Shown here in pieces: positions 1 to 23,035 of a stretch of DNA of 28,542 nucleotides. The DNA comes from a phage: NCBI GenBank assembly GCA_012646845.1, contig GCA_012646845.1_4707.3; one strand, 5' to 3'. Both the position numbers and the translations under genes were made by a program. The notes beneath the pieces are model-generated. The model worked only from the letters and a program-made list of their open reading frames with translations. It was not told the origin of the DNA and searched no databases. Numbering within the stretch: the first letter of the stretch is position 1; every line of letters begins with the position of its first letter.

Positions 1-38
1 AACTGTCGGTAGTAATCAAGGTATTTAAGTTTTGCCAT
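1..38 (-). CDS. 5' end of a minus-strand gene that continues beyond the left edge of the window (product unknown)
   Basis: ATG at 36-38 on the minus strand (translation begins MAKLKYLDYY...), preceded by GGAG about 8 nt upstream, lying 4 nt downstream of the stop of the beta-prime-like gene. Only about 12 codons are visible. Confidence 0.3.
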   Translation of the reverse strand, partial: MAKLKYLDYYRQ

Positions 39-41
39 GGG

Positions 42-1730
42 TTAGGCTCCACGAGGTCCCGTTAAGTTGCGTAATAGGAACGCAACCGTATCGTAACCAA
101 TATCAATGTTGAATTTATTTTTACCACTTACCCAGAAAGCTCGCTTCTTGTGCGAGTTGGTAATTTCGTCAATGGCTTCCATGGAATAAAGAACGTTAAC
201 CGAGACCGTATCACCATCAAAGTCCCCACCAAGTCCGGCGAGGTATGGGGCAGGAACAATAGTAGTTTCTACGAACGAGGCATTAGGTAACCAGTCGGGG
301 TATTCCCATGCGATAAATCGTTCATCCGTTATTGGTTCCCAGTTACTATCCAGTTCGGTTTTCGGTTTTGCCGCAACGGTTGTACGCGCGTAACAGGTTA
401 ACGGGATAACGGATTGCATACCGGATACCGGATAACGTGTTACCATCGCAGCCAGGTTATTCCAGTACTTATATCCGGCAATATAGATAAGCTCGGTGTA
501 AGTAATGGGGTGAACATCCGCACCAGGCTTATTCAGCATCTCCGGAGGTAATTCACTCATGCCACGGAATAACCGAAACGAATCATTATTTACATAGACG
601 AGACAAAGATATCGTCCATTAACCATGATAGGTTCGTTACGCACGCCCGGATCGCTTAAGGTATTCAATAAGCGTTCTATTCCGTCCCATGTTGTAAAGT
701 CATCGATGGTGTCTGGATCAAGCGTAACACGTTCACGTTCCATCGTTTCGGTATCAATAAGTTCAACTTCTGTAACATCACGGACAAATATTTCCTGCAA
801 AATCCCCGTACGTAACGCATGTTGCGTTACAGGGAGAGCAGCTTTACTCATCTGGTATAACCCTAACTGAACTGCGGTACAGGAAGGCTGGTTAGGCGAC
901 CCTAGTACCTCTGTTGTGGGGTTAATTGCCGAAATAACGTTACGGGTTGAGTTCCAAACACGACGTGAGCCGAACTTCCCTTGGAAGATCCCTTTCTTAC
1001 CTTGGAACATGTCCAACAACAAAGCGTAGATATCGTTAAATGTTCTCTGTAAGCTCCAGCGCTGGCCGTCGTAAACGGGATCAGAATAATCTTTTAATCC
1101 ATCAGGGACGGTGTTGGAAATTGCAAGGAAACGACGATACAACTCCGTGATTTCTTGCTCGCTTTCATACCCGCCTTCTTTTACTTCTATTTCACGTAAA
1201 CCCGCAGGTAAAACCAGTAAGTGACGGGTCATCGCTTTGAACATGTTCTCTTCGACAACTTTAATTCGTAGCTCTCGTTGAGCTGAACCCGTTGAAACGA
1301 ACTTAATATCAGCTACGTGCTGTGCAAAGAACCCGTATCCTGTTTGTCCTGTTAACGCATCAGACGCAACGAAGTCGCGTTGTTCAGGATCCCAACGAGC
1401 GTACGCCTTTCCTGACATGATATCACCATAGAGGTGTTTTAGTCGAATGAGGCGGTCGTAAATGACAGGGTGCAGGATTTCAACCTTGCATTCAATCACC
1501 GCAAATCGACGGTCTCGGTCTTCACTGCCCGCACTACCAAAGATGGTGTAAGAATAGAAACCATCATCGTGGAAATTACCGGTGCTTGGGTCACGAATGC
1601 TCATGCTCGTGATCTTGGGGAGAAAACGTAACTGTTGTTTATCGAGGTGCAAAATGCTAATATTAAACGGCTCTCTGACTTTAGCCATGGAGACACTCCT
1701 CTTTACCACCACCGGCTGCGGCGGTATCAT
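42..1730 (-). CDS. Multisubunit RNA polymerase beta-prime-like subunit, N-terminal fragment (phage-encoded split RNAP)
   Basis: 562-aa ORF. The C-terminal region contains GGDFDGDTVSVNVLYSMEA (encoded around nt 212-226), matching the universal beta-prime active-site motif NADFDGD...V.V....EA. Strong SD (AAGAGGAG) about 7 nt upstream of the ATG at 1730. Confidence 0.7.
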   Translation of the reverse strand: MIPPQPVVVKRSVSMAKVREPFNISILHLDKQQLRFLPKITSMSIRDPSTGNFHDDGFYSYTIFGSAGSEDRDRRFAVIECKVEILHPVIYDRLIRLKHLYGDIMSGKAYARWDPEQRDFVASDALTGQTGYGFFAQHVADIKFVSTGSAQRELRIKVVEENMFKAMTRHLLVLPAGLREIEVKEGGYESEQEITELYRRFLAISNTVPDGLKDYSDPVYDGQRWSLQRTFNDIYALLLDMFQGKKGIFQGKFGSRRVWNSTRNVISAINPTTEVLGSPNQPSCTAVQLGLYQMSKAALPVTQHALRTGILQEIFVRDVTEVELIDTETMERERVTLDPDTIDDFTTWDGIERLLNTLSDPGVRNEPIMVNGRYLCLVYVNNDSFRLFRGMSELPPEMLNKPGADVHPITYTELIYIAGYKYWNNLAAMVTRYPVSGMQSVIPLTCYARTTVAAKPKTELDSNWEPITDERFIAWEYPDWLPNASFVETTIVPAPYLAGLGGDFDGDTVSVNVLYSMEAIDEITNSHKKRAFWVSGKNKFNIDIGYDTVAFLLRNLTGPRGA

Positions 1731-1933
1731 CTGAACACACGAGAGACGTAATGGGTGATGGCGTCACCCATCGCTTCCTTGCTTGAGGCGAGGAAGTTAT
1801 TAGGTTACGTGCCTGCCTGATTTTATCAGGTGGGCGATGTGTGAAGTTACGCTTCAACATTATCATTGCCGAAGGTAAACTTCGTGCATCACGTTCCAAC
1901 GTAACATGGGAACGTATCGAACTGGAGGTATAC

Positions 1934-4900
1934 ATGGTAGATAAAACCCGTGTTGAGGGTGATGATAATTGGGATAACTGGGATGATGACTTCTCCCTGG
2001 ATCTCGATTTTAACGAACCCAAAGACGATCGTAAACCGATAACCCGCTTTGCGGTAGGAGCGGTTAAAGGTGCTGCTGAGGATCTTACTTCCTACGAAAG
2101 AATGAAGGAGATCGCCAGAAACGCATTGCCTAAGGGCTACAGCGACGGTATGGATCTTATCGATTCCGCCGTCGGATCCACGAAGGAACTATACAATGAA
2201 GCCGTTCGTGACGTTCTTCCTAAGGTCCAAAGCTCAAAACGGTTAGCCGCACAACTGACCAAGAAATACCGTGCGAGCATGCCCGATTTCTCGAAGAAAA
2301 TTCTTGAGCAATGGGAGCGAGAAGCCAAGGAAGAAGACGAACGTAAACAAGCTGAAGAAACCCTTCGTCAGCGCATGGCGAACGCGGGGGACGATGAGAT
2401 CGCCCGCAAGGTTGCCGAGGCATTAGGCGAATCAGCAAACCAAAGCGCGGATCAGTTTGCTGAACAGCAAGCGAAAGAAAGTATCCGTGACGATATCGCT
2501 GACAAACGGTACGCTGTAACCAACAAGCAAATGAGTGCGATGCAAGAAGGCGTCGCCAAGATGGTTGGTTTCAACAACGAATTTGCTGCGCGCTATATGC
2601 GTAAAAGCCTGGAACTGAAATATCGTTCCTTAGCGATACAACGCGCAAGTTTCGACCAGCATAAAAAGTTAGCCGAAGTCTATATCGGTTTATTACAAAA
2701 CATCCAGAAGAATACGGCTTTACCTGATGCGGCTAAAGCAAAAATGTCGGAAGAATTCCGTCGTAGTGCATACCAACGTTTCTTTGGTAATGCGTTAGAT
2801 GCGATGGGTTCTTTCGAGAACCGTTTCTTTGCCGATGTTAAGAAGAACCTCGCCACCAACGCATTAGGTGCTTTAAAAGGCGTCGTGTCTGGCGCAAACG
2901 ATGCGTTATACGGTTTAAACGAAGCACGTGACTCGATGTCCATGATGGACGGGATGGGGTCAGAAGGCGATATTAAGGAAATGCAAGGAAAGATGTTGGG
3001 TCAGTTCATTGGCTCAACTGTCGCGCCGTGGATGGCTAATAAAGGCAGGATGGCGTTACGCGATTTAGCAAAACGTCACCCCAATGCTAAATTCGCTAGC
3101 GCATTAAAAGCCGTGGATCAAGGTGGTGAGGCTGCCGCTTACACGACGCGTAATCTCGGTAAACTGCTCCAGGAAGATATTCGTAAGAACGAATTCAATC
3201 TTAGCGATCCATTTTACAAGCAATTGTTACGCGGCGCAGGGCGTTGGGCGTTCAACATGGACAGTGGACGTAACTTCCGTGTGATGAACGACACCGCTGA
3301 AACACTGGCAGAGCAAACATCTTTCGACGGTTTAACTTACCGCAGTATCAATGAAGTTATTCCTGGTTTTCTTGCACGCATTCTGAAAAGCAGTGAAGGT
3401 ATCCGCACAGGAAACAGCGATCCTGACTACGAGGTCTATGACGGCATCAGCGGGCAATTCGTGTCTCAGCGCACGCGCGAGCAAAGCGTCAACGACACGC
3501 TGTTTAACAAACGTTCATTTGGTTATTACGCCAGCCGTTTCAACGAGGTTATCTCGGTCATCGATCCTGATAAGCAATTATCGGAAAAAGCCAGGAAGGC
3601 ACTGGCCAAGCAGTTGGCACGAGATAGCGACGCGAACATCGCATTCGACCCGGCTCGTTTTACGGATGAAAGCAACTTCGATCGTAGCATTGATCGTGAC
3701 GCTATTAAGGAACTTTCCACGTACTTTCGTGACCGTTACGGTATTCGTGATGATGTCAACGATAAGGGCGAACGCCATCAGGTCATTGGAAACCGCGGGC
3801 AATATTACACGGAACGTAACCGAGCCGATCTTCGTTACGGTAATCTGAAATCTTTACAACCGGATATCCAGCGTAACCTTAACCTGCTGAAACGTACTGG
3901 TGATGTCCAATATCTGGAACGGATCGGGATTGTAACGAGAAATAGCGACGGGAGCTACTCGGTTAATCACGATCGATATTTCTCTGAAATTGATCAATAC
4001 ATCGACAGACCAGAGTACGCTGACCGCGGCGATGTCAATACACGATTAACTGCTCAGGAAACAAGAGCACTGGCGCTGGGTTATCGTGACGCAAAACCAT
4101 CAGCTGGTGACGTCCAAAATACGGGTCTGCCGAACATCGATCGTAAGGCTGCTGGAACAGTAACCATTGATGAAAACATCGGCTACGATAAATGGTGGAA
4201 CGACGCAGGTGTTATCACCACATCGCTTGAAGAACAGAATCGAGCGTGGCAAGAGCTTTATCTCGAGGCGTTGTCCGAAGCATCCGAACAACGTGTTGAA
4301 ATGCTTGCGTTGCTGAAAGCCATTTCTGAGAAAGACTGGTCTAATAACGTTTCGCTGGATGGCGAAGACGTACCTGAAGGTGCAGCGCCCATTTCATTTA
4401 TCGATCGCACCAAACAAAAGCTCGGCACACGCAACCTCTTTAAAGGCGGTCGTAATCTCCTCTGGAAAGGAATTAAAAATACCGCACGGTTGGGTGTTAA
4501 AGGTGCACGCTGGGGTGCAGAACGTACACTAGGTAGTTTGGTAAATTCCGGCAGACGTATTATCGATTTCAACCGTTTTGTGTTCGGCGCATTATCCAAG
4601 GTTGATCAGGTTCCGTTTGACATTTACGTTAAAGGGGAATCCCAACCACGCATATTGGCTGCCAAACTTCGTCAGGGGTTATACTTCGACGAAGCGACAG
4701 GAAAAGCCGTAAAACGAATGAAGGATATCAAAGGCCCACTCGTTGATGCGGATGGAAACATCGTAATCAGCAACGAGGATATCGAGAAAGGGTTGGTCAC
4801 TCGCGCTGGTCGCGCCTTTGAGAATTCAGGACTTAAAGCGTGGGCGCATGAGGGTCTTAATGGAATCACGACGGTATTAAGTCTGCCACGGATGTTAAAA

Positions 4901-7900
4901 CGCGGCGCGGTTGAGATCTACAAACAGCTCGACAAAACGCCCGACGTTTACGTCAAGGGAGAATCAACGCCTCGTCTATTATCCATGGTGTTAGCGGCGG
5001 GTGGGTATTTCCGTCGCTCCGACGGACAAACCATCAAAAATCTTGAAGACATCGATGGCGATGTTGTTGATGCACAAGGTAACGTCGTACTTACGCTTGC
5101 CGACATGCAGAAAGGACTTGTCGATAAATACGGTAAAGCGATTCGGCGCTTAAAAGAAAAGCTTATCAACTTCGGTGTAAAAGCTTTTACGTTACCGTTA
5201 ACGCTGTTACGTAAGACAAAGGACATCCTTAAAACCCTTCCAGGTAAAACCGTTAACGGCCTACGACGGATGGGATTAAATTTCCAATCACCTGACGCAT
5301 TACTGGTGGGAACAACATCGAGCATGGTAGATCGTCTCGATGCTATTTACCAGCTTCTTGACCAACGTATGCCGGGTGGCGATAGGGATTATCGCGATTG
5401 GAATGGGGATGGTGTTCGAGAAGGATCGTTGGAAGACCTGAAACGTAAGCGTGAAGCCAAGGAAAACGGTAAGGATGGCACCGGCAAAGATTCCAATAAA
5501 GGAGAAGAAAAGGAGAAGAAACGAGGATTACTCGGAAGCCTTTTCGATATGCTTGGCGATACCGCATTAGGTAAACGACTCATGGCGAGTCCGCTTGGAA
5601 AAATTCTAGGTGGTCTTGGGGCGGTGTTAAGTGGCGGAGCATCGTTAACCGGATTGTTGGGTAAGGGTCTCATTAGTGGAACCGGCGCGCTAGTCAAGGG
5701 AGGACTAAGTGCGGCAGGATGGTTAGGACGTGGTGCGTTAATGGCGGGCGGGGCCGCATTGAACGCTGTTGGCGGGTTATCGGGATTAGGCGCATTCCTT
5801 ATATCACCTGTTGGGCTTGCTATTGCAGGTGGTGCATTGGCTGCTTATGCGGGATGGAAGATCTATCAGCATTTCGCCGAGAAGCCTGACCCGATGCAGA
5901 AGCTCCGTCTTATTGCGTACGGTGCAAAAGGGGACGATAAAGACTTCAATAAGAAGCTGCTTGCGACAGAAACATACCTCACCGACCACGTGGTTATGAC
6001 CGGGGATACCATCGGATTCGATCCGAAAGCCGACTCGGAAAAGATTCTCGAAATCTGGGAATTGTCTCTGGAAGATTCCGACCGAATGAACGAATGGAAA
6101 CGCTGGTATCTGCATCGTTTTATTCCTGTTTTCGCTCGTGCGTACAAACTCTGGAAAGAGCATATGCCGGACGAGAAGAAATACATGGAAATGGATAAAT
6201 ATCCGAACGGTGAGAACAAAGTGAAATGGTCGGAAGCGTTTATCTGGCCTTCCGATAGTCCTGACGGTCCGTATTACGTCGAAGCTAACCCGTTGGGTTC
6301 TTCTGGTGCGACGCGTTATATTGCTGGTCAAGACGTCAAAACCTTGATGCTGAAACAACTCGAAGCCATCAAGAAAGAGTACCAGAATCAGATCAAACAA
6401 TACTCTCATGATGAGGCTATTGCTGATTGGTCACGGATGTCTGACACACAACGTAAATCCGTTGCGCCTAACGCATTACGCGGTCAGAAAGCGTCGTTAC
6501 GTTTTAACGATAAACGTTATAACAGTGCTGGCGCTAAAGGACGACAGAAGCTTGACGCAACCGCGGTTATTGAAAGCGTAGACCGTCGTGGTAGAAAATG
6601 GGTCGCCGGTGGATACATCGATGAACTCACCAGTCTTCGTGTTCGTGCGTACGGTATTAAGGTTCCGTTGTTAAGTCAGATAAAAGTGCTGATGGAACTC
6701 GAAGACGCTGTAGAACCCGGTGTTGTCGCTGAAGGTAAAGGTGTTAAATACGGTGGCGATCTTGTCGCGCTCTACAAGAAATTCGCGACGAAGTTCGGAA
6801 GAGACGTTAACAGCAAGCAGGATCAGGATATCTGGTTTGCTTGGATGAATAACCGTTTCCTGCCCGTCTTTTTAACCTATTACCAGCACGTTAGCGACAT
6901 GGGTGGCCAAGGTCTTCTGTCCGATGTGGTACAGAACCTGAAAGACAGCCAACGCTGGGAGATCGGTGAGGCACTTGTCGCAACGCAATACCGTGATGAG
7001 AAAGGTGCACTCCAGCCTGTATGGTCCTGGAATAGTTGTGGTTTCTCCGGTACTGAAGCTAACACCACCAGCAGTTCAACAAAGAGCCAACTCGATCTGT
7101 TAAAAGAATATGCGGATAAAGAGAAGGTTCGTGAGAAGAACGCGGAAGCATCGCAAGAGGATACCGATAAATTATCGAAGATCCAAGAGCTGATGATGAA
7201 GCAGGCTGGGTACGAGAAGAAAGACGGTGTCTGGCAGAAGAAATCACGCATTACCGGTGGGATGAGTAACTCCGAAGCGAATTACAACCCCAATGGGAAT
7301 AGGGTAGGTGCAAGCAGCTTTACCGCTTCAGCTACTTCCAGTGCGGGATTGGGGTCAACCGGCGATCTTACCGGATTGCCTAACATGGGCTTACAGAAAC
7401 CTGCAACGGGACCAGGTCCCGAAGCTGGACGTCGTGCGCTTGTTAAATCCGCTGTGAAACGCGGTATTACCGATCCAATGGAAATGGCGATGTTCCTTGC
7501 AAACATCGAACATGAATCGGGGAACTACACTCACGTACGTGAGGGGAACTATAAGACACCAGAGCGTCTTAAACAGGTCTTCCCTTACAAATTCCGTGAC
7601 GTGCAGGATGCAGCGCAGACGATTAGCATGGGGCCGGAAGCGGTATTCGAACGCGTGTACGGTAATCGTAAAGACTTAGGGAACACGCAGAAAGGAGACG
7701 GTGCGAAGTATTTAGGACGTGGCTTCATTCAGGTTACCGGTAAAGCTAACTACGCTCGTCTGTCCAAGACCTTGAATAAAGATCTTGTCAGCGATCCATC
7801 ATACCTGGAAACGCCGGAAGGTGCGGCGGAAGGTAGTGTCGCGTGGTGGCTCAACCGAGGCAATGTGTTACGCGATCCTGCGAAACGGGGTGATGTGCGC

Positions 7901-8599
7901 CAAGTTCGTTATCTGGTTAACGGCGGCTATAATGGATTACGTGATGTTGAACAGCGCTCTGCTTATTGGATTCAGGCGGCTAAGAACGGCACCCTGAAGA
8001 AAATGATGGACGAGTTATCAGGGTCAACATCCGACGATCAAGCTGAAGGACCGACCACTGCCGAACAGGTGAAGAACGAAGCAGCACAAGAGGCAAACGG
8101 AACACCTGCTGTAAGCAACGATCCGCAAGCCCCAGCACCTTCTACCACCCCTGAAGCTAAACCGTCGGCGGCTGCCGGTACGGCTCCAGCACCCGGAGAA
8201 GCATCACCAACGCCTGGAAGTTTCGAAACAGCGAAAGCTGCGGTAGGACAACCGACATCAACGCCAGCACTTAGCGATTTGCCGTCAAACCCCGGCGCAA
8301 ATCGAGGGATATCGGTTCCGAATACACCCGCACAGGTCGCGCAGTCTGCGACACAAACATCGGTCGCGAGTGAGAACTTCTACGGTAGCGCAGGTGAAAT
8401 TCTCCGACAGCAGCTGACCACGCAGCAGAACATCGAGAAGAACACCGGTAGAACGAATGAACTTATTTCGGAATTAATCCAAGCCGTTAAGGGTTCTTCT
8501 ATCGGTAAGGGTTCTGCAAGTCCTTCTCAACAACAGGCGATGTCGCTACCTAATCGTCCGCAAGGAATCTCTCCAACACGGACAAGGTACGCACAGTAG
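1934..8599 (+). CDS. Giant virion-associated protein (~2,221 aa) with glycine-rich hydrophobic segment and GH19-like peptidoglycan hydrolase domain
   Basis: Single uninterrupted ORF. The track starts it at GTG 1841; I prefer ATG 1934, preceded by GGAGG (1924-1928) at 5-nt spacing. Motifs FLANIEHESGNY...YLGRGFIQVTGKANY (nt ~7490-7760) resemble GH19 lysozyme/chitinase signatures. Gly/Ala/Leu-rich hydrophobic stretch at nt ~5515-5880. P/A/S/T-rich linker at nt ~8040-8330. Hairpin terminator follows. Confidence 0.8.
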   Translation: MVDKTRVEGDDNWDNWDDDFSLDLDFNEPKDDRKPITRFAVGAVKGAAEDLTSYERMKEIARNALPKGYSDGMDLIDSAVGSTKELYNEAVRDVLPKVQSSKRLAAQLTKKYRASMPDFSKKILEQWEREAKEEDERKQAEETLRQRMANAGDDEIARKVAEALGESANQSADQFAEQQAKESIRDDIADKRYAVTNKQMSAMQEGVAKMVGFNNEFAARYMRKSLELKYRSLAIQRASFDQHKKLAEVYIGLLQNIQKNTALPDAAKAKMSEEFRRSAYQRFFGNALDAMGSFENRFFADVKKNLATNALGALKGVVSGANDALYGLNEARDSMSMMDGMGSEGDIKEMQGKMLGQFIGSTVAPWMANKGRMALRDLAKRHPNAKFASALKAVDQGGEAAAYTTRNLGKLLQEDIRKNEFNLSDPFYKQLLRGAGRWAFNMDSGRNFRVMNDTAETLAEQTSFDGLTYRSINEVIPGFLARILKSSEGIRTGNSDPDYEVYDGISGQFVSQRTREQSVNDTLFNKRSFGYYASRFNEVISVIDPDKQLSEKARKALAKQLARDSDANIAFDPARFTDESNFDRSIDRDAIKELSTYFRDRYGIRDDVNDKGERHQVIGNRGQYYTERNRADLRYGNLKSLQPDIQRNLNLLKRTGDVQYLERIGIVTRNSDGSYSVNHDRYFSEIDQYIDRPEYADRGDVNTRLTAQETRALALGYRDAKPSAGDVQNTGLPNIDRKAAGTVTIDENIGYDKWWNDAGVITTSLEEQNRAWQELYLEALSEASEQRVEMLALLKAISEKDWSNNVSLDGEDVPEGAAPISFIDRTKQKLGTRNLFKGGRNLLWKGIKNTARLGVKGARWGAERTLGSLVNSGRRIIDFNRFVFGALSKVDQVPFDIYVKGESQPRILAAKLRQGLYFDEATGKAVKRMKDIKGPLVDADGNIVISNEDIEKGLVTRAGRAFENSGLKAWAHEGLNGITTVLSLPRMLKRGAVEIYKQLDKTPDVYVKGESTPRLLSMVLAAGGYFRRSDGQTIKNLEDIDGDVVDAQGNVVLTLADMQKGLVDKYGKAIRRLKEKLINFGVKAFTLPLTLLRKTKDILKTLPGKTVNGLRRMGLNFQSPDALLVGTTSSMVDRLDAIYQLLDQRMPGGDRDYRDWNGDGVREGSLEDLKRKREAKENGKDGTGKDSNKGEEKEKKRGLLGSLFDMLGDTALGKRLMASPLGKILGGLGAVLSGGASLTGLLGKGLISGTGALVKGGLSAAGWLGRGALMAGGAALNAVGGLSGLGAFLISPVGLAIAGGALAAYAGWKIYQHFAEKPDPMQKLRLIAYGAKGDDKDFNKKLLATETYLTDHVVMTGDTIGFDPKADSEKILEIWELSLEDSDRMNEWKRWYLHRFIPVFARAYKLWKEHMPDEKKYMEMDKYPNGENKVKWSEAFIWPSDSPDGPYYVEANPLGSSGATRYIAGQDVKTLMLKQLEAIKKEYQNQIKQYSHDEAIADWSRMSDTQRKSVAPNALRGQKASLRFNDKRYNSAGAKGRQKLDATAVIESVDRRGRKWVAGGYIDELTSLRVRAYGIKVPLLSQIKVLMELEDAVEPGVVAEGKGVKYGGDLVALYKKFATKFGRDVNSKQDQDIWFAWMNNRFLPVFLTYYQHVSDMGGQGLLSDVVQNLKDSQRWEIGEALVATQYRDEKGALQPVWSWNSCGFSGTEANTTSSSTKSQLDLLKEYADKEKVREKNAEASQEDTDKLSKIQELMMKQAGYEKKDGVWQKKSRITGGMSNSEANYNPNGNRVGASSFTASATSSAGLGSTGDLTGLPNMGLQKPATGPGPEAGRRALVKSAVKRGITDPMEMAMFLANIEHESGNYTHVREGNYKTPERLKQVFPYKFRDVQDAAQTISMGPEAVFERVYGNRKDLGNTQKGDGAKYLGRGFIQVTGKANYARLSKTLNKDLVSDPSYLETPEGAAEGSVAWWLNRGNVLRDPAKRGDVRQVRYLVNGGYNGLRDVEQRSAYWIQAAKNGTLKKMMDELSGSTSDDQAEGPTTAEQVKNEAAQEANGTPAVSNDPQAPAPSTTPEAKPSAAAGTAPAPGEASPTPGSFETAKAAVGQPTSTPALSDLPSNPGANRGISVPNTPAQVAQSATQTSVASENFYGSAGEILRQQLTTQQNIEKNTGRTNELISELIQAVKGSSIGKGSASPSQQQAMSLPNRPQGISPTRTRYAQ

Positions 8600-8610
8600 T
8601 CATTAGTTAA

Positions 8611-8637
8611 GGGCGGGAGATTCCCGCCCTCTTCTTG
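8611..8637 (+). terminator. Hairpin terminator after the giant gene
   Basis: GGGCGGGAG-att-CCCGCCC stem-loop (8611-8629) followed by TCTTCTT, 12 nt after the TAG stop. Confidence 0.5.
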
Positions 8638-8648
8638 AGGAATGTTAC

Positions 8649-10790
8649 ATGGGTATTCTTGTTCAAAACGCCCTAATCACCAAACAGGCGTTTTTATTAC
8701 CAGGCGATAGCAGCACGCTGAGTGCCGACATGATTAAAGCGAGACATACACCGTATTCCTACGATAACGTCGATGATACCACTTTAGGCGGGAACTGGGT
8801 GCTTAACCCACCACCGCAATATACCAAATTTGCCGACATCAAAGAACGCCGACGTGCGGTTATGCCGGGATCAACGGGCATGGGCCGAGGCTATAGTGAA
8901 AGCATTAACAGCTTTAAAGAAGTCGTTACGTTACGATTCGGTAAACCTCGCTTTACAGGCGCAAGTATCTTCTTTACTGATTTCTACGATGCTGATGTTG
9001 CCGTAACGGTTAAAACCGGTCGCGATCCCGGTATTCTTTATTACGCAGCCAAAGCGTATACCACCGTTCTTTCTTACCTCACACCGCTACCTTACTTGTA
9101 TATGGTTGGACGTATTGGTCGATATTTCCTGGGTAAGCCTACCAGTCAATATTACTATCAAGTACCAACCATGCACGTGTATTGGGCATCTTTCCAGACA
9201 CTGGTAAACCAAACAGCGATAAACATGGGTCTTATCGCCGGTGCTGGTAAAGATAAAGGCTACGTGGAAGAAGGGGGTACCGTACTCCACCAATATTCAA
9301 TCGGTGGCCAGAACGTTGAAGAATTCATCAACTACGCCTCTAAGACGCTACCGGGGATTTATAAGAAAGGTGGTGGGATCGATATCTACCAGATCGCAAC
9401 ACGGCGTCAGCGCATACAGAACGCATGGGTACGTCGTATTCAATCCATGATGGAAAACGATTACTCGTCGTACGAGGAGTTCTGGAACGATCTTGATAAA
9501 CGACTTGATAGCGGAGCGTTTCCATCGGATGTAACCGGCCGTACGCTAACGCAGTATCTCGCCGACACACAGAAGTCTGCTGTTTACAGTGCGACAGCTG
9601 GTGATAATAAACAAACGATGGACGACCTTTTATTCGGAAGGGCCTCGTACACCAATAAAGATGCTGACGCCAACTTCAATGTCTCAGCGGCTACCTCCGA
9701 CGGAGGTACGTCAACACAGAGTCAGGGCACAACAGCCAATGTCGGCAATTCGACGTCAGGGACAACACAGGCTTCAACAGCAGCATCAACAGCTGGAGGC
9801 GCGAACGTACAGAGCAAAGGAATCGGGCAAACGAACGCAGCCGAAGAAGCTACGTTTCTTGATCTGATGGATGCTGAATTGGCCGACGGTGCTCAGTTCA
9901 TCAGTTTTCGAGTCGATTCTGTCACCAGTGTAACCGAAACGTTTTCAAACAGTGCTTCCGAAAGTTCTATCGCACAGACGATGAATAGCCGCGCGCAAGC
10001 GAACATCGAACGTCGTTTCACCCTCTCCGGTGGTAATACGGGTTGGGCTGTACTGGACGAAGCAATCAAAGCCGGTTCCGATCTCGTTAATGGCGCTATT
10101 TCCGGGATGGGTCTGGATGGTATTTTTGGTGCCTTCATGGGTTCCGGCTTCGCAGACATTCCGAAATTCTATTCTGGGTCGTCAGTAAGTCTACCGCGTG
10201 CCGATCTGACGATGGAATTGCGTTCCTGGAGTGGGGACCGCTGGTCGATCTTTACGAACCTCATGGTACCTCTTTTGGCTATCCTTGCAGGTGGTTTACC
10301 TCAGGCTACCGGTAAATCGTCCTACGGGATGCCGTTCATGTGTGAGTGTTATGTTCCCGGTAAAGTCCAGATTAAAATGGGCCTTATCGATAACATCACT
10401 GTGACGCGTCATGTTGGAAACGTACCATCAACACGCGAGCGTTTACCGTTGGGCATCGATGTCAGCTTCAGCGTTTATGACTTGTCGTCTATCGTCGCCA
10501 TGCCGATCACAACGACGGCCGCATCGATCGCAAAATTAGATCCTCGTGGCTTCTTAAGTGATCTTCTTGCTGATGATACTCCGCTCAACAACTATCTTGC
10601 TGTATTATCGGCATTGACACTTACGGAACAAGTTTACATGATTCCTGATTTAAGTCGTCGCATGCATAAAACCATGGCTGATATCGACAGTTTCTGGAGC
10701 AAAGGTAATTTTGCTAGCTGGTTGTCTGACACCATGCCAGGCAGGATAGCATCAGGGCTGTTATGGAAACGTACAGAACGACCGTTCTGA
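8649..10790 (+). CDS. Hypothetical protein (713 aa), possibly structural; contains S/T/G-rich low-complexity linker
   Basis: Long ORF with GAGGAA SD 6 nt upstream of the ATG. Same strand and immediately downstream of the giant protein gene. No recognisable catalytic motif. Confidence 0.75.
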   Translation: MGILVQNALITKQAFLLPGDSSTLSADMIKARHTPYSYDNVDDTTLGGNWVLNPPPQYTKFADIKERRRAVMPGSTGMGRGYSESINSFKEVVTLRFGKPRFTGASIFFTDFYDADVAVTVKTGRDPGILYYAAKAYTTVLSYLTPLPYLYMVGRIGRYFLGKPTSQYYYQVPTMHVYWASFQTLVNQTAINMGLIAGAGKDKGYVEEGGTVLHQYSIGGQNVEEFINYASKTLPGIYKKGGGIDIYQIATRRQRIQNAWVRRIQSMMENDYSSYEEFWNDLDKRLDSGAFPSDVTGRTLTQYLADTQKSAVYSATAGDNKQTMDDLLFGRASYTNKDADANFNVSAATSDGGTSTQSQGTTANVGNSTSGTTQASTAASTAGGANVQSKGIGQTNAAEEATFLDLMDAELADGAQFISFRVDSVTSVTETFSNSASESSIAQTMNSRAQANIERRFTLSGGNTGWAVLDEAIKAGSDLVNGAISGMGLDGIFGAFMGSGFADIPKFYSGSSVSLPRADLTMELRSWSGDRWSIFTNLMVPLLAILAGGLPQATGKSSYGMPFMCECYVPGKVQIKMGLIDNITVTRHVGNVPSTRERLPLGIDVSFSVYDLSSIVAMPITTTAASIAKLDPRGFLSDLLADDTPLNNYLAVLSALTLTEQVYMIPDLSRRMHKTMADIDSFWSKGNFASWLSDTMPGRIASGLLWKRTERPF

Positions 10791-10806
10791 TATTCAATGC
10801 ATAAAC

Positions 10807-10838
10807 CCCTCTCCCAACCCGTAAGGGAAGGGAGAGGG
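10807..10838. terminator. Two-tier hairpin between convergent genes (conserved core, copy 1)
   Basis: CCCTCTCCC-AA-CCC-GTAA-GGG-AA-GGGAGAGGG. Lies between the stop of the 713-aa gene (10790) and the stop of the convergent gene (10845). Confidence 0.55.
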
Positions 10839-10844
10839 AATATG

Positions 10845-11912
10845 TTAACCTAATGTCACTGTCGGTAAATCAGGATAAAGTTTCTTCAAGCCAGCCATTG
10901 TGGTGGTAGTTGTATAATTCTTACCCATCACAGCAAGAGAGGCATATTTCCTACTGCGGGAGAAAAGAGAATAGAACCCACTGGATGTTTCCATCCACAT
11001 TGTGAGGAGTTCTGCATCGTTACCGTGATAGTTCGTTTTACCCCAGCCGGGTTTAAACGCATCAGCAAAATCAATTAAACGCGATGCTTCAGCGTCGTAT
11101 TCTTTAAGGGTAATGTACGATGGGATACGGTAGTTACGAAACAACAACGTAATGAGTTCAGGGACAACACTGCGGGCACGTTCAGCCGTAATGAGTTCGG
11201 TGATAACAGCAGCCGTACGGAAATCGCCGTTGAGACCAACGCTACTTAACGATTCCGCTAAGGTGGTTGCCATCGCTACTTTATCCTCCGCTGACCCAGA
11301 GTCATACAGACTACGCACATCGATGTAGTTGCCTGCTAATGCGGCTTGACGAATCAACGATGTGACAACTGTCCGGTTCGTCTTATAGTCGTTGTAACTA
11401 AATTCGGTTCGCGTTTTCCCTTGATCGTCGAGATACCGATCGACAATCGTTGATAGTTTATAATACTCATCGCCCGACATCAGACTATCGAGAAGCTTAA
11501 CGTTTCCATCTTTATCAATAAGCTTCCCTAACGCGCCATTGGATTGCTGGTTAATGGTACTGTAAATCTGGTCTTTTACTTGCGATAGGATGTTATCGGT
11601 CGACGATATATTCAAGCCTGTAACATCTTTGATCTTATTCATCAATGCGTTTTCATTCAGGGAGATTTTGCCGCCGCTGATATCGATGAAAGAGTTAAGA
11701 TCGCTTATGGAAATCAGGTTTCCGGTTAACGCCGATAATGTACTATTGATACTGTTCGTAATACTGCTACGAAAACTGGTTAACGCATCCGCCGCCGAAA
11801 CAGCGGTACCGCTAACCGCTTTAAGGAGCGTATCACGCCCTGTCGAAAAATCGCTGGTGATGGTTTTGATCTTGGACGTATCTATACTCGGCAGTTTGTC
11901 GTAAAGACTCAT
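10845..11912 (-). CDS. Hypothetical protein (355 aa), Ser/Thr-rich N-terminal half
   Basis: ORF track extends to 11963. I prefer the ATG at 11910-11912 (MSLYDK...), which has an AGGAGG SD about 5 nt upstream and avoids the upstream hairpin. Confidence 0.7.
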   Translation of the reverse strand: MSLYDKLPSIDTSKIKTITSDFSTGRDTLLKAVSGTAVSAADALTSFRSSITNSINSTLSALTGNLISISDLNSFIDISGGKISLNENALMNKIKDVTGLNISSTDNILSQVKDQIYSTINQQSNGALGKLIDKDGNVKLLDSLMSGDEYYKLSTIVDRYLDDQGKTRTEFSYNDYKTNRTVVTSLIRQAALAGNYIDVRSLYDSGSAEDKVAMATTLAESLSSVGLNGDFRTAAVITELITAERARSVVPELITLLFRNYRIPSYITLKEYDAEASRLIDFADAFKPGWGKTNYHGNDAELLTMWMETSSGFYSLFSRSRKYASLAVMGKNYTTTTTMAGLKKLYPDLPTVTLG

Positions 11913-11923
11913 CACGTCCTCCT

Positions 11924-11977
11924 GAAAAAGAAAAAAGAAATACGGCATAAAGCCTACCCACACAATGGTGGGTAGGC
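11924..11977 (-). terminator. Intrinsic terminator/attenuator between two minus-strand genes
   Basis: 10-bp perfect stem GCCTACCCAC / GTGGGTAGGC (11952-11977) with 6-nt loop, followed on the minus strand by a U-rich tract (plus-strand A-run at 11924-11940). Confidence 0.5.
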
Positions 11978-11994
11978 TAAGATCAACATCGATG

Positions 11995-12507
11995 TTAAAC
12001 TTCTTCGTTTTCTGAACCTAATGATTCAGCATCTGGATCGTCAACAGGAATTGTTGCATCAAAATACCGTTTCGTGTGCGTGGTTGTATATCCTACGCTA
12101 TCTGTGATGGAAATCGTAAACGTGACTTCTCTCGCACGGATTAAGCGTAGTTTATTCATGAAGTTACGGAACGGCATCGATCCCCGATTCAACTCCTTAA
12201 TGACGTTTCCTCGAATACTGGAAATATCTTTATTCGTCTTATCGGGATGCCGTTTCTTCACATCACGCATATGTCGGGTAATATACGAATTGAGCTGATT
12301 TGCGCCGATCCCTCTCTCCGTATAAATCTGCAACAGGAACTCCGTAAGGAAATCCTGTCTACCCGTAGGCGTCCAGAAATTGTTACCGTGATTGTAGTTA
12401 GTCGCTCGTCCTCGATTACTTTGAGGATTTTCATCATCGTTTTCGTCACAACGCTTAAGCGGATTAATGCGTGCTCGGAAAGAGACTTCATTATATTTAT
12501 TTGTCAT
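11995..12507 (-). CDS. Hypothetical basic protein (170 aa)
   Basis: ORF track extends to 12552. The internal ATG at 12505-12507 (MTNKYNEV...) overlaps the upstream gene's TGA stop as ATGA, indicating translational coupling. Confidence 0.6.
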   Translation of the reverse strand: MTNKYNEVSFRARINPLKRCDENDDENPQSNRGRATNYNHGNNFWTPTGRQDFLTEFLLQIYTERGIGANQLNSYITRHMRDVKKRHPDKTNKDISSIRGNVIKELNRGSMPFRNFMNKLRLIRAREVTFTISITDSVGYTTTHTKRYFDATIPVDDPDAESLGSENEEV

Positions 12508-13019
12508 AATACACCAGTGTACTGACTGAGTGCGAAGGTTAGGAGTTCGCAACAGTCTCTCGCTAGTTTCCTTGTTTTGCGTAATCCATAAGCCGCATCC
12601 AAATCGTCACGTTCCGCTAGCGCGTCTAACCACGTCGCAAGTATGCGTCCATACTCGATAACGTCACGCATGAGAACGTCGAACTGGATAACACGACCAT
12701 CGGCATCAGCAAGCCAACGATTGAATGTGATTTGTGGTGCTAGTATTGCATATGTTCTCTCCTCTAATGCGATTATGTTTATGTTGCCTTCGTTATCGAA
12801 CGCTTGATGCCAACGGCGAAGGTCAAGCATCAACGACTCAGCGTCCATATACCACAACGGTAAATACGTTTTACGTGCAACGCGTATATCGTAGATGTTG
12901 TGAACCCAGGACGTTGTTTTGTAAAGCAACAAGAGTTCGTTTAACCGTTGCCTATCATCTTGAAACGTCTTCCTTTTATAACGTTGGAACGCACGCCTCA
13001 AGAAAAAGCGATGTAACAT
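12504..13019 (-). CDS. Hypothetical protein (171 aa)
   Basis: ORF with ATG at 13019, heading a minus-strand block. A divergent intergenic region lies upstream. Confidence 0.65.
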   Translation of the reverse strand: MLHRFFLRRAFQRYKRKTFQDDRQRLNELLLLYKTTSWVHNIYDIRVARKTYLPLWYMDAESLMLDLRRWHQAFDNEGNINIIALEERTYAILAPQITFNRWLADADGRVIQFDVLMRDVIEYGRILATWLDALAERDDLDAAYGLRKTRKLARDCCELLTFALSQYTGVL

Positions 13020-13087
13020 GGCATCACCTATGTATCATTCTTGCAGGCATCAATGAAGCCATCACAAGAAGGTAACGTTATACGTCG

Positions 13088-13111
13088 CCTTCATGACAGT
13101 CATCATGAAGG
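13088..13111. promoter_or_regulatory. Perfect inverted repeat (9-bp arms, 6-bp spacer) in a divergent intergenic region; candidate operator
   Basis: CCTTCATGA-cagtca-TCATGAAGG between the minus-strand start at 13019 and the plus-strand start at 13153. A TAATAT hexamer follows at 13112-13117. Confidence 0.35.
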
Positions 13112-13152
13112 TAATATAGTCCTGTTATTTTTTTCAATACGGAGAATGTAAA

Positions 13153-13782
13153 ATGAGCGAATACGGTGTTGTCCCCGTAGATGATGAACCGCAAGAGGCA
13201 CCCGATAAATTCGAGGTCCGTCTTGACGAAACCCGTAACATCCGTCAACGATTTATTCAACGTCTTGAAATGCTGTTAGATAGCGAATTCAAAGATTTTG
13301 AGCGTAACCCCGGTGCAGATAATAAAGCCATTGTCGACGTCGAAAACGTCGACCGGATAGGTAAGCTGTTGTTGAAATCGTTGGGTGATAACGATAAAGT
13401 CGACTTAACGTTGAAACGTATCAGCGCCGACCAGGCTATGAACGACAGCGCATTGAAAACAGCACAGGCCCTAACCGAAACCATGCTGCGCCGCTTAGGT
13501 CAGATAGATGAACATCCTCTCGCAGCAGGGGCTGTTTACGATGGCGAAGTCGTGAAGTCAGTTACGCCTGAAGAACGCGATCGTCGACTTGGTTTTGCAT
13601 CGTTGGAAGAGTTTAATAGCAAGGAGTTTTCACCAGGCGTTCTCATCCAGGGACGTGTCGAAGAAACCAGTGATGCTTTCTACGCTAGAATGGCTCAACT
13701 GACGGAGTCGGTTCGTGAGGAGGTGTCTCAGAAGATGGCTGCAGATCATCAGTCTTCGGAGGCGTCACACGAGGAGGGATAA
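13153..13782 (+). CDS. Hypothetical acidic protein (209 aa)
   Basis: ATG at 13153 with GGAG SD about 8 nt upstream. Glu/Asp-rich. The 3' end overlaps the convergent gene's 3' end by about 98 nt. Confidence 0.65.
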   Translation: MSEYGVVPVDDEPQEAPDKFEVRLDETRNIRQRFIQRLEMLLDSEFKDFERNPGADNKAIVDVENVDRIGKLLLKSLGDNDKVDLTLKRISADQAMNDSALKTAQALTETMLRRLGQIDEHPLAAGAVYDGEVVKSVTPEERDRRLGFASLEEFNSKEFSPGVLIQGRVEETSDAFYARMAQLTESVREEVSQKMAADHQSSEASHEEG

Positions 13783-14473
13783 AATAACTGAACCATTTTA
13801 TCCCAAAGAACCGCATGAACATCACGGGTGCGTTAGAAAGTTCGATTGCTTCGTAAAGTTTGTCGTAAGCCAGATCGGAATCAGGGATGGTTTCGCTGAT
13901 TCGTCTGGCGACAACCAACACGTTACAAATCGGATTGTCTTCTAACAGCATCTGATTGGGGAGATGCCAGCGTTTGAAATCGTAAAAGAACATTGCGTTA
14001 TATGTCTTACGGATTTCTGATGGATGCAGTGTGGCCGGATGACGGTAAATAATCTCGACGCTATCTTGCGCACCGAGGTATTGCTGAATACCTTCTTTTA
14101 ATGCTGTCGCTGCATCTCCCACAAATTCAAACGGGTACGTGTTCACGTGAACCGAAAAATCCGGCGTAGCAATCCCCGTTAAGCGGTCTTTCATGTAATC
14201 CGCGACTACATAACACAGCCGCCACATCAACTCCGTCGGGATACATTTATCGAGAATGGTCTCGTCGATATTTGCCATCGCGTCCTTAAACTCTTCGTAA
14301 GTATAAGTAACGCCCGCCTGCTTCTCCGGCTCCAGGTTATAGGGTCGGTAATGCCATTTCTTCCCCCACTTTCTGATAGCCTCCGGATCCAACGTTGTTG
14401 CTACCGCCATTTCGATATCAAGCAATGCTTCGAGTTCTACGTACACCGTCACCAATGCTGCACTTCCAGTCAT
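13685..14473 (-). CDS. Hypothetical protein (262 aa)
   Basis: ATG at 14471-14473 overlaps the upstream gene's TAA stop by 1 nt (TAATG coupling). Last gene of a six-gene minus-strand block. Confidence 0.7.
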   Translation of the reverse strand: MTGSAALVTVYVELEALLDIEMAVATTLDPEAIRKWGKKWHYRPYNLEPEKQAGVTYTYEEFKDAMANIDETILDKCIPTELMWRLCYVVADYMKDRLTGIATPDFSVHVNTYPFEFVGDAATALKEGIQQYLGAQDSVEIIYRHPATLHPSEIRKTYNAMFFYDFKRWHLPNQMLLEDNPICNVLVVARRISETIPDSDLAYDKLYEAIELSNAPVMFMRFFGIKWFSYFIPPRVTPPKTDDLQPSSETPPHEPTPSVEPF

Positions 14474-15177
14474 TATTGCTCTCCAGCTTCACCGGTTAAC
14501 ATCTGCATATCGGGAGACGTTTTAATTTTCTTCTCGTACTCTTTTGTTTGTTTGAATACCAATTCACCGATTTCTTCCAATTCTTCAACGGTGACGGTAT
14601 GCAAATAAAGCAGCGGAATAATCCAGGTATTCGCACGAAGCATGTCCTGAATATCGTCAACGGTGGGTAACTCCGTAAAGAACTGTTCGTCTACCGCAAA
14701 TAAATCCCGTGCGATACCATCCACCAGTTTATGATCGCTTTCATGGATCCATGCAAAACTTCCAGCAAGATGATCGATAAGCATATCGATGTCATCGACC
14801 GTTGAGAACACTGTACGGCGAACATGCGTTGTGAGGTCCATCGTAAAACCCATTAACGAAGGGGTTTCCTCAGAACGGAGTTCACGCCAAAGACGGAGCA
14901 TGTTTTCGGGGATAAACAAATCATGGATGAACGTTACGCTAAATTTCGTAATCCAATCACGAATTGTCGCACCTCTGGAATACTGTTGTGGTGGGGAATA
15001 CAAATACACCCAACGTTTCGTAAACGCGATAACTTCCTTTCGCATCGTCGCATCTAAAACAAGCACGTAACGATCGGAAGCAAGCTCTTCTAACAAAAGC
15101 TCGAACGCTGTATCGCTCTCTGGGGAGAACGATCGTTTTATTTCTGCGATACGTCGTGATAGCCGACTACGTAACAT
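14473..15177 (-). CDS. Hypothetical protein (234 aa)
   Basis: ATG at 15175-15177 lies 2 nt downstream of the upstream gene's stop. No recognisable motif. Confidence 0.7.
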   Translation of the reverse strand: MLRSRLSRRIAEIKRSFSPESDTAFELLLEELASDRYVLVLDATMRKEVIAFTKRWVYLYSPPQQYSRGATIRDWITKFSVTFIHDLFIPENMLRLWRELRSEETPSLMGFTMDLTTHVRRTVFSTVDDIDMLIDHLAGSFAWIHESDHKLVDGIARDLFAVDEQFFTELPTVDDIQDMLRANTWIIPLLYLHTVTVEELEEIGELVFKQTKEYEKKIKTSPDMQMLTGEAGEQ

Positions 15178-15179
15178 AA

Positions 15180-15854
15180 TTAGCCCTCATCAAGGTTATT
15201 CTGGAGATGCATTGCGGTGAGAATAACACCAACTGCCGAAACCGATTTTGCCTTGCTGTCTTCGGGTAGCTGTTCCAAGCTTACGGTACCTGTTTCTAAC
15301 AGCATGCGGTTCATCGCGTTGAACTTCTTATCATCGCCACCACGAGCCTGCATTAACTCTCGGTTCACGTTTGGCATCGATCGTCCTAACGTTGCTTGCA
15401 TTTCCGGTTGACTCCAAGTGGAACCTTTACTATCACCTGTCGGCTGATTGGTGAGCTGGTCCTTGGTGTTGTTGTTTTTCGGAATCGATATTTTAGCACT
15501 CAGCGTTTCGGCTTGTCGGCGGTTTGGAATCAGGTACAATCTGGTTGGGCGATCACGAAGCACCAATTGTCCTGTTTTCTGATCGGTGAGATAAACGCGT
15601 TGGAAGAAAGGGAAACCGTATTTCTTGCCGACTTCCAGTGCGCGTTTTATCGTCACCTCGTTTTTGTTCATATTGGGTACCCAGATGGGTAGAATCTCTT
15701 TCTTATCCCGACATAAACGCATATACGCATCAAACGTCTCATCATCGATTTCAGCAAAACGTTTTTTGTAAATAGCGTAGGTCGGACTCGATCCCCCCAC
15801 CAAGTCTTTGATATACCCAAGAATGAATTTTTCTGCTGCAGCGCGGTTGGACAT
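15180..15854 (-). CDS. Hypothetical protein (224 aa)
   Basis: ATG at 15852-15854 with AGGAGA SD that overlaps the stop of the upstream SLOG-like gene. Confidence 0.7.
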   Translation of the reverse strand: MSNRAAAEKFILGYIKDLVGGSSPTYAIYKKRFAEIDDETFDAYMRLCRDKKEILPIWVPNMNKNEVTIKRALEVGKKYGFPFFQRVYLTDQKTGQLVLRDRPTRLYLIPNRRQAETLSAKISIPKNNNTKDQLTNQPTGDSKGSTWSQPEMQATLGRSMPNVNRELMQARGGDDKKFNAMNRMLLETGTVSLEQLPEDSKAKSVSAVGVILTAMHLQNNLDEG

Positions 15855-15863
15855 AAACGTCTC

Positions 15864-16190
15864 CTATTGTCGTGTCTGTTGCGGAAATACCCGAAACACC
15901 TGGACGATGATGTTCTTGTCCTCGCGGTTGGCGATGTCAATCATGTGTTTTGTTCCAGGACTTTTGAAATCCCAGAACGCAACTAGATGCGTAATGACAT
16001 CGCCCATCCACTCGTTGCGTCTGAATCCAGCACCTTTACGATAAGGGCCATCCCAATCGGCAGGAAACGTGGTGTATTTAAACCCGTAATCCTTCGCATA
16101 GCGGCGCACATGCAAATCAGCACCTGAACGCGCACCGCCAGCAATGAGATGAACTTTGTCGTGAGGGAGGTTATGTAACATCTGGTTCAT
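15864..16190 (-). CDS. SLOG/DUF2493-like small Rossmann-fold protein (DprA/LOG-related)
   Basis: Motifs HLIAGGARSGADLHVRRYAKDYG ... FPADWDGPYRKGAGFRRNEWM ... LVAFWDFKSPGTKHMIDIA match the DUF2493/SLOG pattern as I recall it. Track start is TTG 16205; I prefer ATG 16188-16190 (MNQMLHNL...). Confidence 0.6.
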   Translation of the reverse strand: MNQMLHNLPHDKVHLIAGGARSGADLHVRRYAKDYGFKYTTFPADWDGPYRKGAGFRRNEWMGDVITHLVAFWDFKSPGTKHMIDIANREDKNIIVQVFRVFPQQTRQ

Positions 16191-16258
16191 ACGCTTTTCG
16201 AACAAGGGATAATCATCCCAGTAGCGTGATCCTGATACCCCTACACGATAGGGTTCGC

Positions 16259-16579: not shown

Positions 16580-16591
16580 TTATTCAGCCTT

Positions 16592-18082: not shown

Positions 18083-18180
18083 TGGGTAAAAACTCCTTCG
18101 ATTCTTCGACTAATTCTTAGTGTTCAGAGAATAACTATTTTTAGTTAAGACTGACAACCACTATTTCCACGAGGACCATC
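18083..18180. promoter_or_regulatory. Divergent intergenic region (probable promoters for both flanking genes)
   Basis: 98-bp AT-rich non-coding gap between divergent starts at 18082 (-) and 18181 (+). Promoter consensus cannot be assigned by eye. Confidence 0.3.
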
Positions 18181-19023: not shown

Positions 19024-19032
19024 CATAATAAC

Positions 19033-19067: not shown

Positions 19068-19074
19068 GTAAGGT

Positions 19075-19506: not shown

Positions 19507-19509
19507 TGA

Positions 19510-23033: not shown

Positions 23034-23035
23034 TT

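Follow-up and report, generated by a model that had tools for sequence, protein, structure and literature searches.

The closest described systems for the gene pair considered here come from two jumbo phages. In Escherichia phage vB_EcoM_Goslar (237,307 bp; Goslarvirus, Chimalliviridae), the protein gp205 has been found in purified virions by mass spectrometry, and it is one of the five subunits listed for the virion RNA polymerase (vRNAP), together with gp78, gp196, gp207 and gp210 (bioRxiv 10.64898/2026.04.21.720040). The giant protein gp204, encoded next to it, was detected in the virions by the Goslar mass spectrometry with 34 peptides, at an estimated 3-8 (~5) copies, and was labelled "Tail protein." In phiKZ, the counterparts gp180 and gp181 lie side by side and diverge; gp178 (beta) follows gp180, and gp182 follows gp181. 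The phiKZ gp181 is a structural peptidoglycan hydrolase of 2237 amino acids (aa), and its muralytic activity has been published (Briers 2008, as cited in PMC5380687). Here, the corresponding pair is described from a 28,542-nt stretch of phage DNA (contig GCA_012646845.1_4707.3 of GenBank assembly GCA_012646845.1), which is referred to as the window. It consists of a minus-strand gene for a fragment of an RNA polymerase (RNAP) and, diverging from it, a plus-strand gene for a giant tail protein.

The region is very probably the conserved junction between the virion RNAP and the tail-hub genes of a Goslar-like, nucleus-forming jumbo phage (Chimalliviridae, Goslarvirus). When the window was compared by megablast with 50,697 phage records, Goslar was the sole match, under two accessions. 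Identity and collinearity with this type species extend over the whole window, and the DNA identity lies at the 95% species boundary: 95.9% for positions 1-12000, 95.5% for positions 12001-23726, and 93.7% for positions 23676-28542, which match Goslar positions 1-4870 and are collinear across the ends of the Goslar record. The two genes of the pair have the same order and orientation as Goslar gp205 and gp204 (the latter annotated there as "putative chitinase"), the proteins are 99.8% and 98.2% identical, and the DNA between the genes is nearly identical. The neighbours are shared as well, namely gp203 (tube initiator), gp202 (baseplate protein) and gp196 (vRNAP subunit). What sets Goslar apart is ~4-5% overall DNA divergence and a group I intron with gp206 that interrupts gp205. 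Homology, motifs, domain families, synteny and genome size class come from the present analysis, and virion presence, copy number and essentiality are taken from published work on Goslar, whose proteins are 98-99.8% identical, and on phiKZ. Two points weigh against the identification: virion packaging was measured for Goslar and not for the phage of the window, and the stretch read covers only 28.5 kb of the genome. Nothing was found that contradicts the identification of the gene pair.

The gp205/gp204 (phiKZ gp180/gp181) junction of a Goslar-like chimallivirus is an already known feature. It places the source of the window among the lytic E. coli/Salmonella jumbo phages of the Goslar lineage. 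Since the counterparts of both genes have been characterised and are 98-99.8% identical, the pair as first described brings no new biology. Its practical value is modest: the likely true start codons can be supplied for both genes. In addition, two product names can be corrected, "RNA polymerase beta subunit" becoming beta-prime N-terminal subunit and "tail fiber protein" becoming tape-measure-like lysin.

The preliminary description of this DNA had started from the premise that phiKZ-type phages place a vRNAP beta-prime fragment next to a giant virion hydrolase. The premise was accurate, and the inference drawn from synteny is sound: the divergent layout is kept in phiKZ and in ten further chimalliviruses (fnug, fMGyn-Pae01, T2P, Vibrio phage 2 TSL-2019, Eowyn, RAY, 201phi2-1, sm033, pSal-SNUABM-04 and Bacillus phage AgentSmith). 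With Goslar included, the arrangement occurs in 12 of the 12 chimallivirus genomes examined. In the ten further genomes, the divergent neighbour of the beta-prime N gene is ~1,045-2,460 aa long by annotated coordinates and is labelled tail fibre, lytic transglycosylase or hypothetical protein; these neighbours were judged by position, length and annotation. The beta gene follows the beta-prime N gene in all ten but AgentSmith. The window resembles phiKZ in the divergent pair itself, in the genes that flank the pair at either end (the beta-like gene, gp178 in phiKZ, and the baseplate gene, gp182), and in the overall length of the giant protein. It differs from phiKZ in the family of the lytic domain of that protein and in having no intron in the polymerase gene.

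The two divergent open reading frames (ORFs) first reported, 42..1730 on the minus strand (562 aa) and 1841..8599 on the plus strand (2252 aa), are the longest possible readings of the two genes, and they are not chance ORFs: phrog_2986 matches the polymerase protein end to end at 2e-179, and phrog_3201 matches the giant protein at 1.6e-294. For the polymerase gene, the sequence AGAGGAG stands at a good spacing before the ATG at position 1688 (M15 of the long reading), and no Shine-Dalgarno sequence precedes the ATG at 1730. The 548-aa form that starts at M15 is called on every related contig and is found verbatim in public assemblies; a look-up in the assembly collection returned no record of the 562-aa reading. 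The gene therefore probably starts at M15 and occupies positions 42..1688 of the minus strand. For the giant gene, the longest ORF begins with a GTG at 1841, but GGAGG lies five nucleotides upstream of an ATG at 1934, and one related contig is called from this ATG. Residues 42 and 66 of the GTG-1841 reading are the first ones covered by the PHROG and phiKZ matches to the giant protein. The likely start is the ATG at 1934, giving a gene at 1934..8599 on the plus strand and a protein of 2221 aa, which agrees with the ~2,220 aa of the preliminary description. Among the Goslar mass-spectrometry peptides in the rows listed, none decides between GTG 1841 and ATG 1934.

The minus-strand protein is the N-terminal half of beta-prime. 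It had no significant match in Pfam or NCBIfam, and because the family is too divergent for these collections, its identification needed PHROG, a profile search of the Protein Data Bank (PDB) and a fold search. With the single sequence, the matches were the non-virion beta-prime N subunit of phage AR9 (7s00_d, 5e-4), plastid beta-prime and cyanobacterial gamma. With a profile built from 35 homologues of 38-70% identity, hmmsearch against the PDB returned 78 significant sequences, and all 78 were beta-prime, gamma or A-prime chains. AR9 beta-prime N again ranked best (1e-14), ahead of plastid beta-prime and cyanobacterial gamma. An AlphaFold model (mean pLDDT 81) gave 7s00_d as the top Foldseek match (5e-15, probability 1.00), followed by cyanobacterial gamma, bacterial beta-prime and archaeal A-prime. 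The global TM-scores were low (~0.3), which we attribute to the modelling of a multi-domain subunit on its own. The proposal of a split beta-prime N-terminal fragment is upheld by both searches, and the database label "beta subunit" is loose because all the profile and fold matches are beta-prime-type chains.

The catalytic motif lies where it was first noted, near the C terminus of the protein. The Mg-binding DFDGD is encoded at 210..224 on the minus strand and corresponds to aa 503-507 of the 562-aa reading; with the two preceding glycines, GGDFDGD occupies residues 501-507 of that reading, or aa 487-493 of the 548-aa form. Residues D489, D491, G492 and D493 of the shorter form are invariant in 35/35 homologues. 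A second block, GKKG...SRR..NGTRNVI, is also invariant in all 35, and it presumably corresponds to a conserved region of beta-prime, GKR...SGRSVI. Past DFDGD the protein has only 55 more residues, and the next gene is the homologue of the beta-like subunit (Goslar gp207, phiKZ gp178). This gene starts 3 nt past the stop codon of the beta-prime N gene; its first 38 nt (1..38, minus strand) are in the window before it runs off the left edge, and on related contigs its product is called at 1448 aa. The gene for the C-terminal part of beta-prime lies outside the window.

Other polymerases are known to be divided in a similar place. The AR9 beta-prime N subunit (7S00 chain d) is likewise a split N-terminal half that ends after the DxDGD loop, but it belongs to a paralogous non-virion enzyme of a Bacillus jumbo phage and is only ~15% identical. 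Cyanobacterial gamma (rpoC1) and plastid beta-prime are natural N-terminal halves that are split shortly after the catalytic loop. Unlike the protein of the window, both are parts of cellular enzymes, with the split at another point and with additional domains, and neither is packaged in virions.

For the giant protein, the homologues are Goslar gp204 and phiKZ gp181, and its identity to the latter is 24% over ~1500 aa, in two segments (aa 35-683, 1e-44; aa 887-1730, 2e-36). In the following, residues of its duplication, hydrophobic stretch and lytic domain are numbered as in the 2252-aa reading. The N-terminal ~1200 aa are charged and are covered by phrog_3201. Within this region, a module of ~100 aa is duplicated in tandem (aa 927-1030 and 1035-1135; 4619..5245, plus strand), the two copies being 39% identical (E 2e-23). 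The duplication was missed by a BLAST search of the protein against itself and was revealed by direct pairwise comparison; in phiKZ gp181, a BLAST self-comparison detected no equivalent duplication. There follows a hydrophobic segment rich in Gly, Ala and Leu (aa 1228-1345; 5522..5875, plus strand), as judged by Kyte-Doolittle windows and composition, and then a central region shared with phiKZ gp181. The lytic domain comes next, and past it the protein ends in a tail rich in Pro, Ala, Ser and Thr.

The preliminary description had given the giant protein a lysozyme-like domain. A lytic domain is indeed present (aa 1867-2045; 7439..7975, plus strand), and it is of the GH19 type, which is not the family found in phiKZ gp181. 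It matches phage endolysin structures (9eoi, 8e-24; 7r6s, 9e-23; 9ms6; 4ok7, 3e-19) and the PHROG endolysin family phrog_181 (1.5e-53); the match to Pfam Glyco_hydro_19 is weak, at 18.2 bits against a gathering score of 25.5. In an alignment with 9eoi, the HES...E signature is kept, with E1891 and E1901 conserved in the motifs IEHES and VREG. The two glutamates of this signature are the catalytic residues of GH19 enzymes. At the equivalent place, phiKZ gp181 carries an SLT domain (PF01464, aa 1885-1978). Because a GH19-type domain here and in Goslar and an SLT domain in phiKZ sit on homologous scaffolds, the comparison indicates domain swapping, in which the lytic module would have been exchanged between lineages and the scaffold kept.

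As to its role in the virion, the giant protein is most likely a tape-measure-like protein of the tail lumen that would also deliver a lysin when the tail contracts. This reading is preferred because the Goslar homologue is present in virions in ~5 copies, is not part of the spike built by cryo-electron microscopy (cryo-EM), and lies next to the gene for the tube initiator, and because phiKZ orf181, in which no transposon insertion was tolerated (that is, it is essential), has been described as the likely tape measure (PMC12676376). The hydrophobic Gly-rich segment is a further point in its support. The Goslar tail tube has 46 layers. If each layer is taken as ~4 nm and each helical residue as 0.15 nm, both being assumed values, ~1,200 residues would span the tube, and this is the length of the giant protein before the hydrophobic segment; the agreement is suggestive only. 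In the mechanism that we infer, the giant protein, which is the largest protein of the virion, would sit in the tail tube lumen in a few copies, with the tube initiator, the product of the next gene, as its anchor. On contraction of the sheath it would be expelled, the GH19 domain would cut the peptidoglycan locally, and the Gly-rich segment, a candidate membrane-inserting region, might insert into the membrane.

Several points weigh against a tape-measure-like role. Throughout the family it is a proposed role, and gp204 is unplaced in the Goslar cryo-EM map. Spanning a 46-layer tube would take a shorter ruler than this protein, which also contains non-helical modules. Older literature puts phiKZ gp181 in the cell-puncturing device, and reviews list it as a needle-like one (PMC5380687). 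It is conceivable, if unlikely, that the giant protein instead forms a tail fibre, binds the receptor or is the central spike that punctures the cell. The product name "tail fiber protein" in phrog_3201 and RefSeq points this way, as does the annotation of 201phi2-1 gp276 as a putative cell-puncturing device, and major parts of the peripheral baseplate are unmodelled in both Goslar and phiKZ. However, in Goslar it is gp13 and gp48, not gp204, that form the spike and cap in the map; ~5 copies would fit a trimer or a hexamer in the lumen; and no domain of a receptor-binding or fibre type turned up in Pfam, NCBIfam or PHROG. The combination of a Gly-rich hydrophobic segment with a lysin domain is also one that occurs in tape measures such as T5 Pb2. 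With the phiKZ statement on orf181 added, the needle and fibre readings are weaker alternatives to a tape-measure-like lumen protein.

A second alternative concerns the polymerase. In chimalliviruses, split beta and beta-prime subunits come in two sets, so the 548-aa protein could belong to the non-virion (middle/late) RNAP and not to the virion enzyme. The closest solved structure is that of the non-virion AR9 subunit, and there is a weak match to a second RNAP family, phrog_2987 (1.5e-5). Nevertheless, this assignment is very improbable. In tblastn against phiKZ, the protein matched virion gp180 at 1e-95 (38% protein identity), and there was no significant match to the gp55 locus, which encodes the non-virion counterpart. 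Goslar gp205, which was detected in virions, differs from it by a single I/V exchange. The synteny with homologues of gp181 and gp178 is that of the virion set. AR9 comes first among solved chains in both the profile and the fold search, and no chimallivirus virion RNAP chain is among the matches listed. On the sequence comparisons, the polymerase protein is the virion paralogue, orthologous to gp180 and not to gp55, as first proposed. The minus-strand gene encodes the N-terminal half of a beta-prime-like subunit whose DFDGD loop holds the catalytic Mg2+. It would assemble with the separately encoded beta-like and beta-prime C-terminal subunits, and the complex would be packaged in the head and injected with the DNA, and it would transcribe the early genes independently of the host polymerase.

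The phage of the window is not an isolated case. Six related loci are 95.4-96.9% identical to the window, and in the assembly collection 97 indexed blocks contain the exact 548-aa protein; 15 of these blocks have contigs of 0.2-1 Mb. Metagenome contigs that encode the identical protein measure 238,705, 235,890, 238,326 and 234,521 bp. Because such near-identical loci and the exact protein recur across assemblies, the window is, as judged from these matches, part of a widespread population of Goslar-like jumbo phages. Although the window itself is 28.5 kb, a size above 200 kb is seen in Goslar and in the contigs with the identical 548-aa protein (234-239 kb), so the jumbo-phage assignment first made is probable. 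A separate cluster representative with a ~100% identical protein lies on a 238,276-bp contig in a Salmonella Enteritidis assembly, which suggests either an association of Goslar-like phages with Salmonella as well or a contamination of the isolate reads. The idea that the pair is a cellular RNAP fragment beside a chromosomal lysozyme, or part of a prophage or of a plasmid, and not of a lytic jumbo phage, can draw on this Salmonella file name for an identical protein, but it is next to impossible, given that the record is a separate contig of phage size, that neither 5,426 complete E. coli genomes nor 72,556 plasmids contained a match to the window, that all the window neighbours of the pair are chimallivirus genes and that no tRNA gene was found in the window. 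The gene for chimallin, gp246 in Goslar (bioRxiv 10.64898/2026.04.21.720040), lies outside the window.

The sole lead worth passing on is found within the catalytic codons of the polymerase gene, where the window has an empty group I intron insertion site, and it bears on competition among co-circulating Goslar-like phages. The site lies between window positions 222 and 221, at D|F of DFDGD, and its intronless sequence is GGTGGGGACTTTGATGGTGAT. In Goslar, the beta-prime N gene is split between these same D and F codons by 2,044 nt (Goslar locus 3222-5265), and the Goslar match accordingly spans 14,045 bp against 12,000 bp of query. The insert holds a group I intron core (Rfam RF00028, 67.7 bits) and gp206, a 490-aa protein with HNH_3 and NUMOD1 domains. 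The phiKZ gp180 gene is split at the identical D|F site (phiKZ locus 8347-9789) by a group I intron (92.2 bits) that encodes the HNH protein gp179; according to PMC10914365, this intron was predicted in the original phiKZ genome paper. Upstream of FDGD, the fMGyn-Pae01 and T2P genes are interrupted as well. Such an interruption is also suggested for Vibrio phage 2 TSL-2019, where a 416-aa ORF and then a separately annotated fragment of 53 aa ("RNA polymerase beta subunit") come after the beta-prime N gene; an FDGD junction was not recovered from this phage.

The window and 8/8 other Goslar-like contigs examined are intronless. At least 7 Goslar-like contigs whose site was read have in common the site GGT GGG GAC TTT GAT. 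The Goslar site reads GGC GGT GAT|TTC GAC, which amounts to five consecutive synonymous third-position differences in 13 nt from the window and from six intronless relatives, against a divergence of ~4.7% elsewhere in the polymerase gene. The 5' junction was read in two intron-plus alleles, those of phiKZ and Goslar, and in both GAT stands directly 5' of the intron; in fMGyn-Pae01 and T2P, of which the 3' side alone was read, TTT GAC stands on that side of the intron. GAC TTY GAT is present in 5/6 intron-minus alleles, the exception being fnug, a near-identical relative of phiKZ. The 5' splice site of group I introns requires a U at position -1. Only this U, that is, GAT and not GAC, is attributable to the splice-site rule. 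Pairing of the exon with the guide sequence of the Goslar intron (P1/P10) was considered as the cause of all five changes and was rejected, the candidate pairings being no better than chance. No convincing internal guide sequence was found near the 5' splice site of the Goslar intron, and the other four changes are unaccounted for by it.

Mobile introns in chimallivirus vRNAP genes are a known pattern (PMC11620839, PMC12908238), so the D|F polymorphism is a new locus and a new example of a known phenomenon, not a new phenomenon. The best comparison is the PhiPA3 gp210 system (Birkholz et al. 2024, PMC11620839). Like the Goslar intron, the PhiPA3 intron belongs to the mobile group I introns, carries an HNH endonuclease and sits at a catalytic-site codon of the vRNAP, and, as in the Goslar-like group, intron-plus and intron-minus alleles occur in related phages. 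It differs in lying in the beta gene, after DD at the position of phiKZ gp178 D1072; the beta-prime site of the window is empty. The intronless allele of the window may be a natural homing target of Goslar gp206, a suggestion that is tentative. If it were true, co-infection by intron-plus and intron-minus phages could lead to invasion by the intron or to interference competition of the PhiPA3/phiKZ style at the catalytic codons of the vRNAP. In that event, the five clustered synonymous differences would mark a co-conversion tract or a cleavage-resistant variant. An intron-plus/minus polymorphism within a population that is ~95% identical is a natural system for tests of homing and competition in E. 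coli.

Two further interruptions were seen in related polymerase genes. In two Goslar-like metagenome contigs (L006 and L008, at 14858-15320 in both), the vRNAP beta gene carries, right after the residues DRDD, a group I intron of ~463 nt that contains no ORF (Rfam, 56 and 54 bits). This site is outside the window, downstream of its position 1, and is homologous to the PhiPA3 gp210 intron site and to phiKZ gp178 D1072; the intron is absent in the other contigs and in Goslar. In phiKZ, the non-virion beta-prime N gene gp55 is followed by the HNH gene gp56 (L010, 9923-12600), and the downstream exon begins ...NNTADFDGD. Read in this way, the gp55 paralogue is interrupted near, but not at, the same codon as gp180.

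The divergent intergenic region (1689..1933) is itself conserved. Across 9 relatives, its mean column identity is 97%, above that of the flanking coding DNA, and it is predicted to fold stably (z-score -6.7; -48 kcal/mol on the plus strand vs -35 on the minus strand). Three adjacent stable hairpins are predicted in it, at 1751-1771, 1773-1797 and 1811-1835. In the third of these, the relatives show a compensatory exchange of a C-G for a T-A pair, G-U wobbles and flips of the loop between TTT and AAA. The hairpins could be a promoter or a 5' untranslated region (UTR) element for the phage polymerases. Strong perfect hairpins of 9-12 bp are enriched in the window as a whole, with 17 found vs 3-11 in shuffled sequences. 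One of them, GC-rich and 9 bp long, directly follows the giant gene (8610..8630, plus strand), and others lie at 11951-11978, 13087-13112, 25509-25536, 27177-27200 and 27369-27395. Most of the strong hairpins appear between ORFs, and several have no T-run. A scan of the window for sigma-70 promoters found no enrichment (8 found vs 12.9 expected), as would be expected because the phage uses its own polymerases.

The remaining genes of the window fit the Goslar order. Downstream of the giant gene on the plus strand, 8649..10790 encodes the tail tube initiator, a 713-aa baseplate hub protein (Goslar gp203; phrog_3181, 5e-172) that is 25% identical to phiKZ gp182 (E 4e-56). Its Goslar counterpart has been built in the cryo-EM baseplate hub (bioRxiv 10.64898/2026.04.21.720040). 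On the minus strand, 10845..11963 encodes the homologue of gp202 (phrog_6532, 1e-36), which is labelled inner baseplate in Goslar Table S4. A 224-aa homologue of Goslar gp196 follows at 15180..15854 (minus strand; phrog_3233). It is called "RNA polymerase beta subunit" in PHROG and RefSeq, and it had no significant match to any solved polymerase chain; its putative assignment to the RNAP comes only from the Goslar virion study, where it is the fifth vRNAP subunit. The ORFs at 23.7-26.7 kb had no PHROG match. Other genes identified are those for a UvsX-like recombinase (16592-18082, minus strand; phrog_97), a large RNase H-like ribonuclease (19510-21048, minus strand; phrog_3265) and a virion structural protein (21657-23033, plus strand; phrog_3293). 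Finally, a 51-nt stretch at window positions 23676-23726 matches both ends of the linear Goslar record, and the window is continuous there, which would mean that the deposited Goslar genome was opened at an arbitrary point or has a short terminal redundancy.

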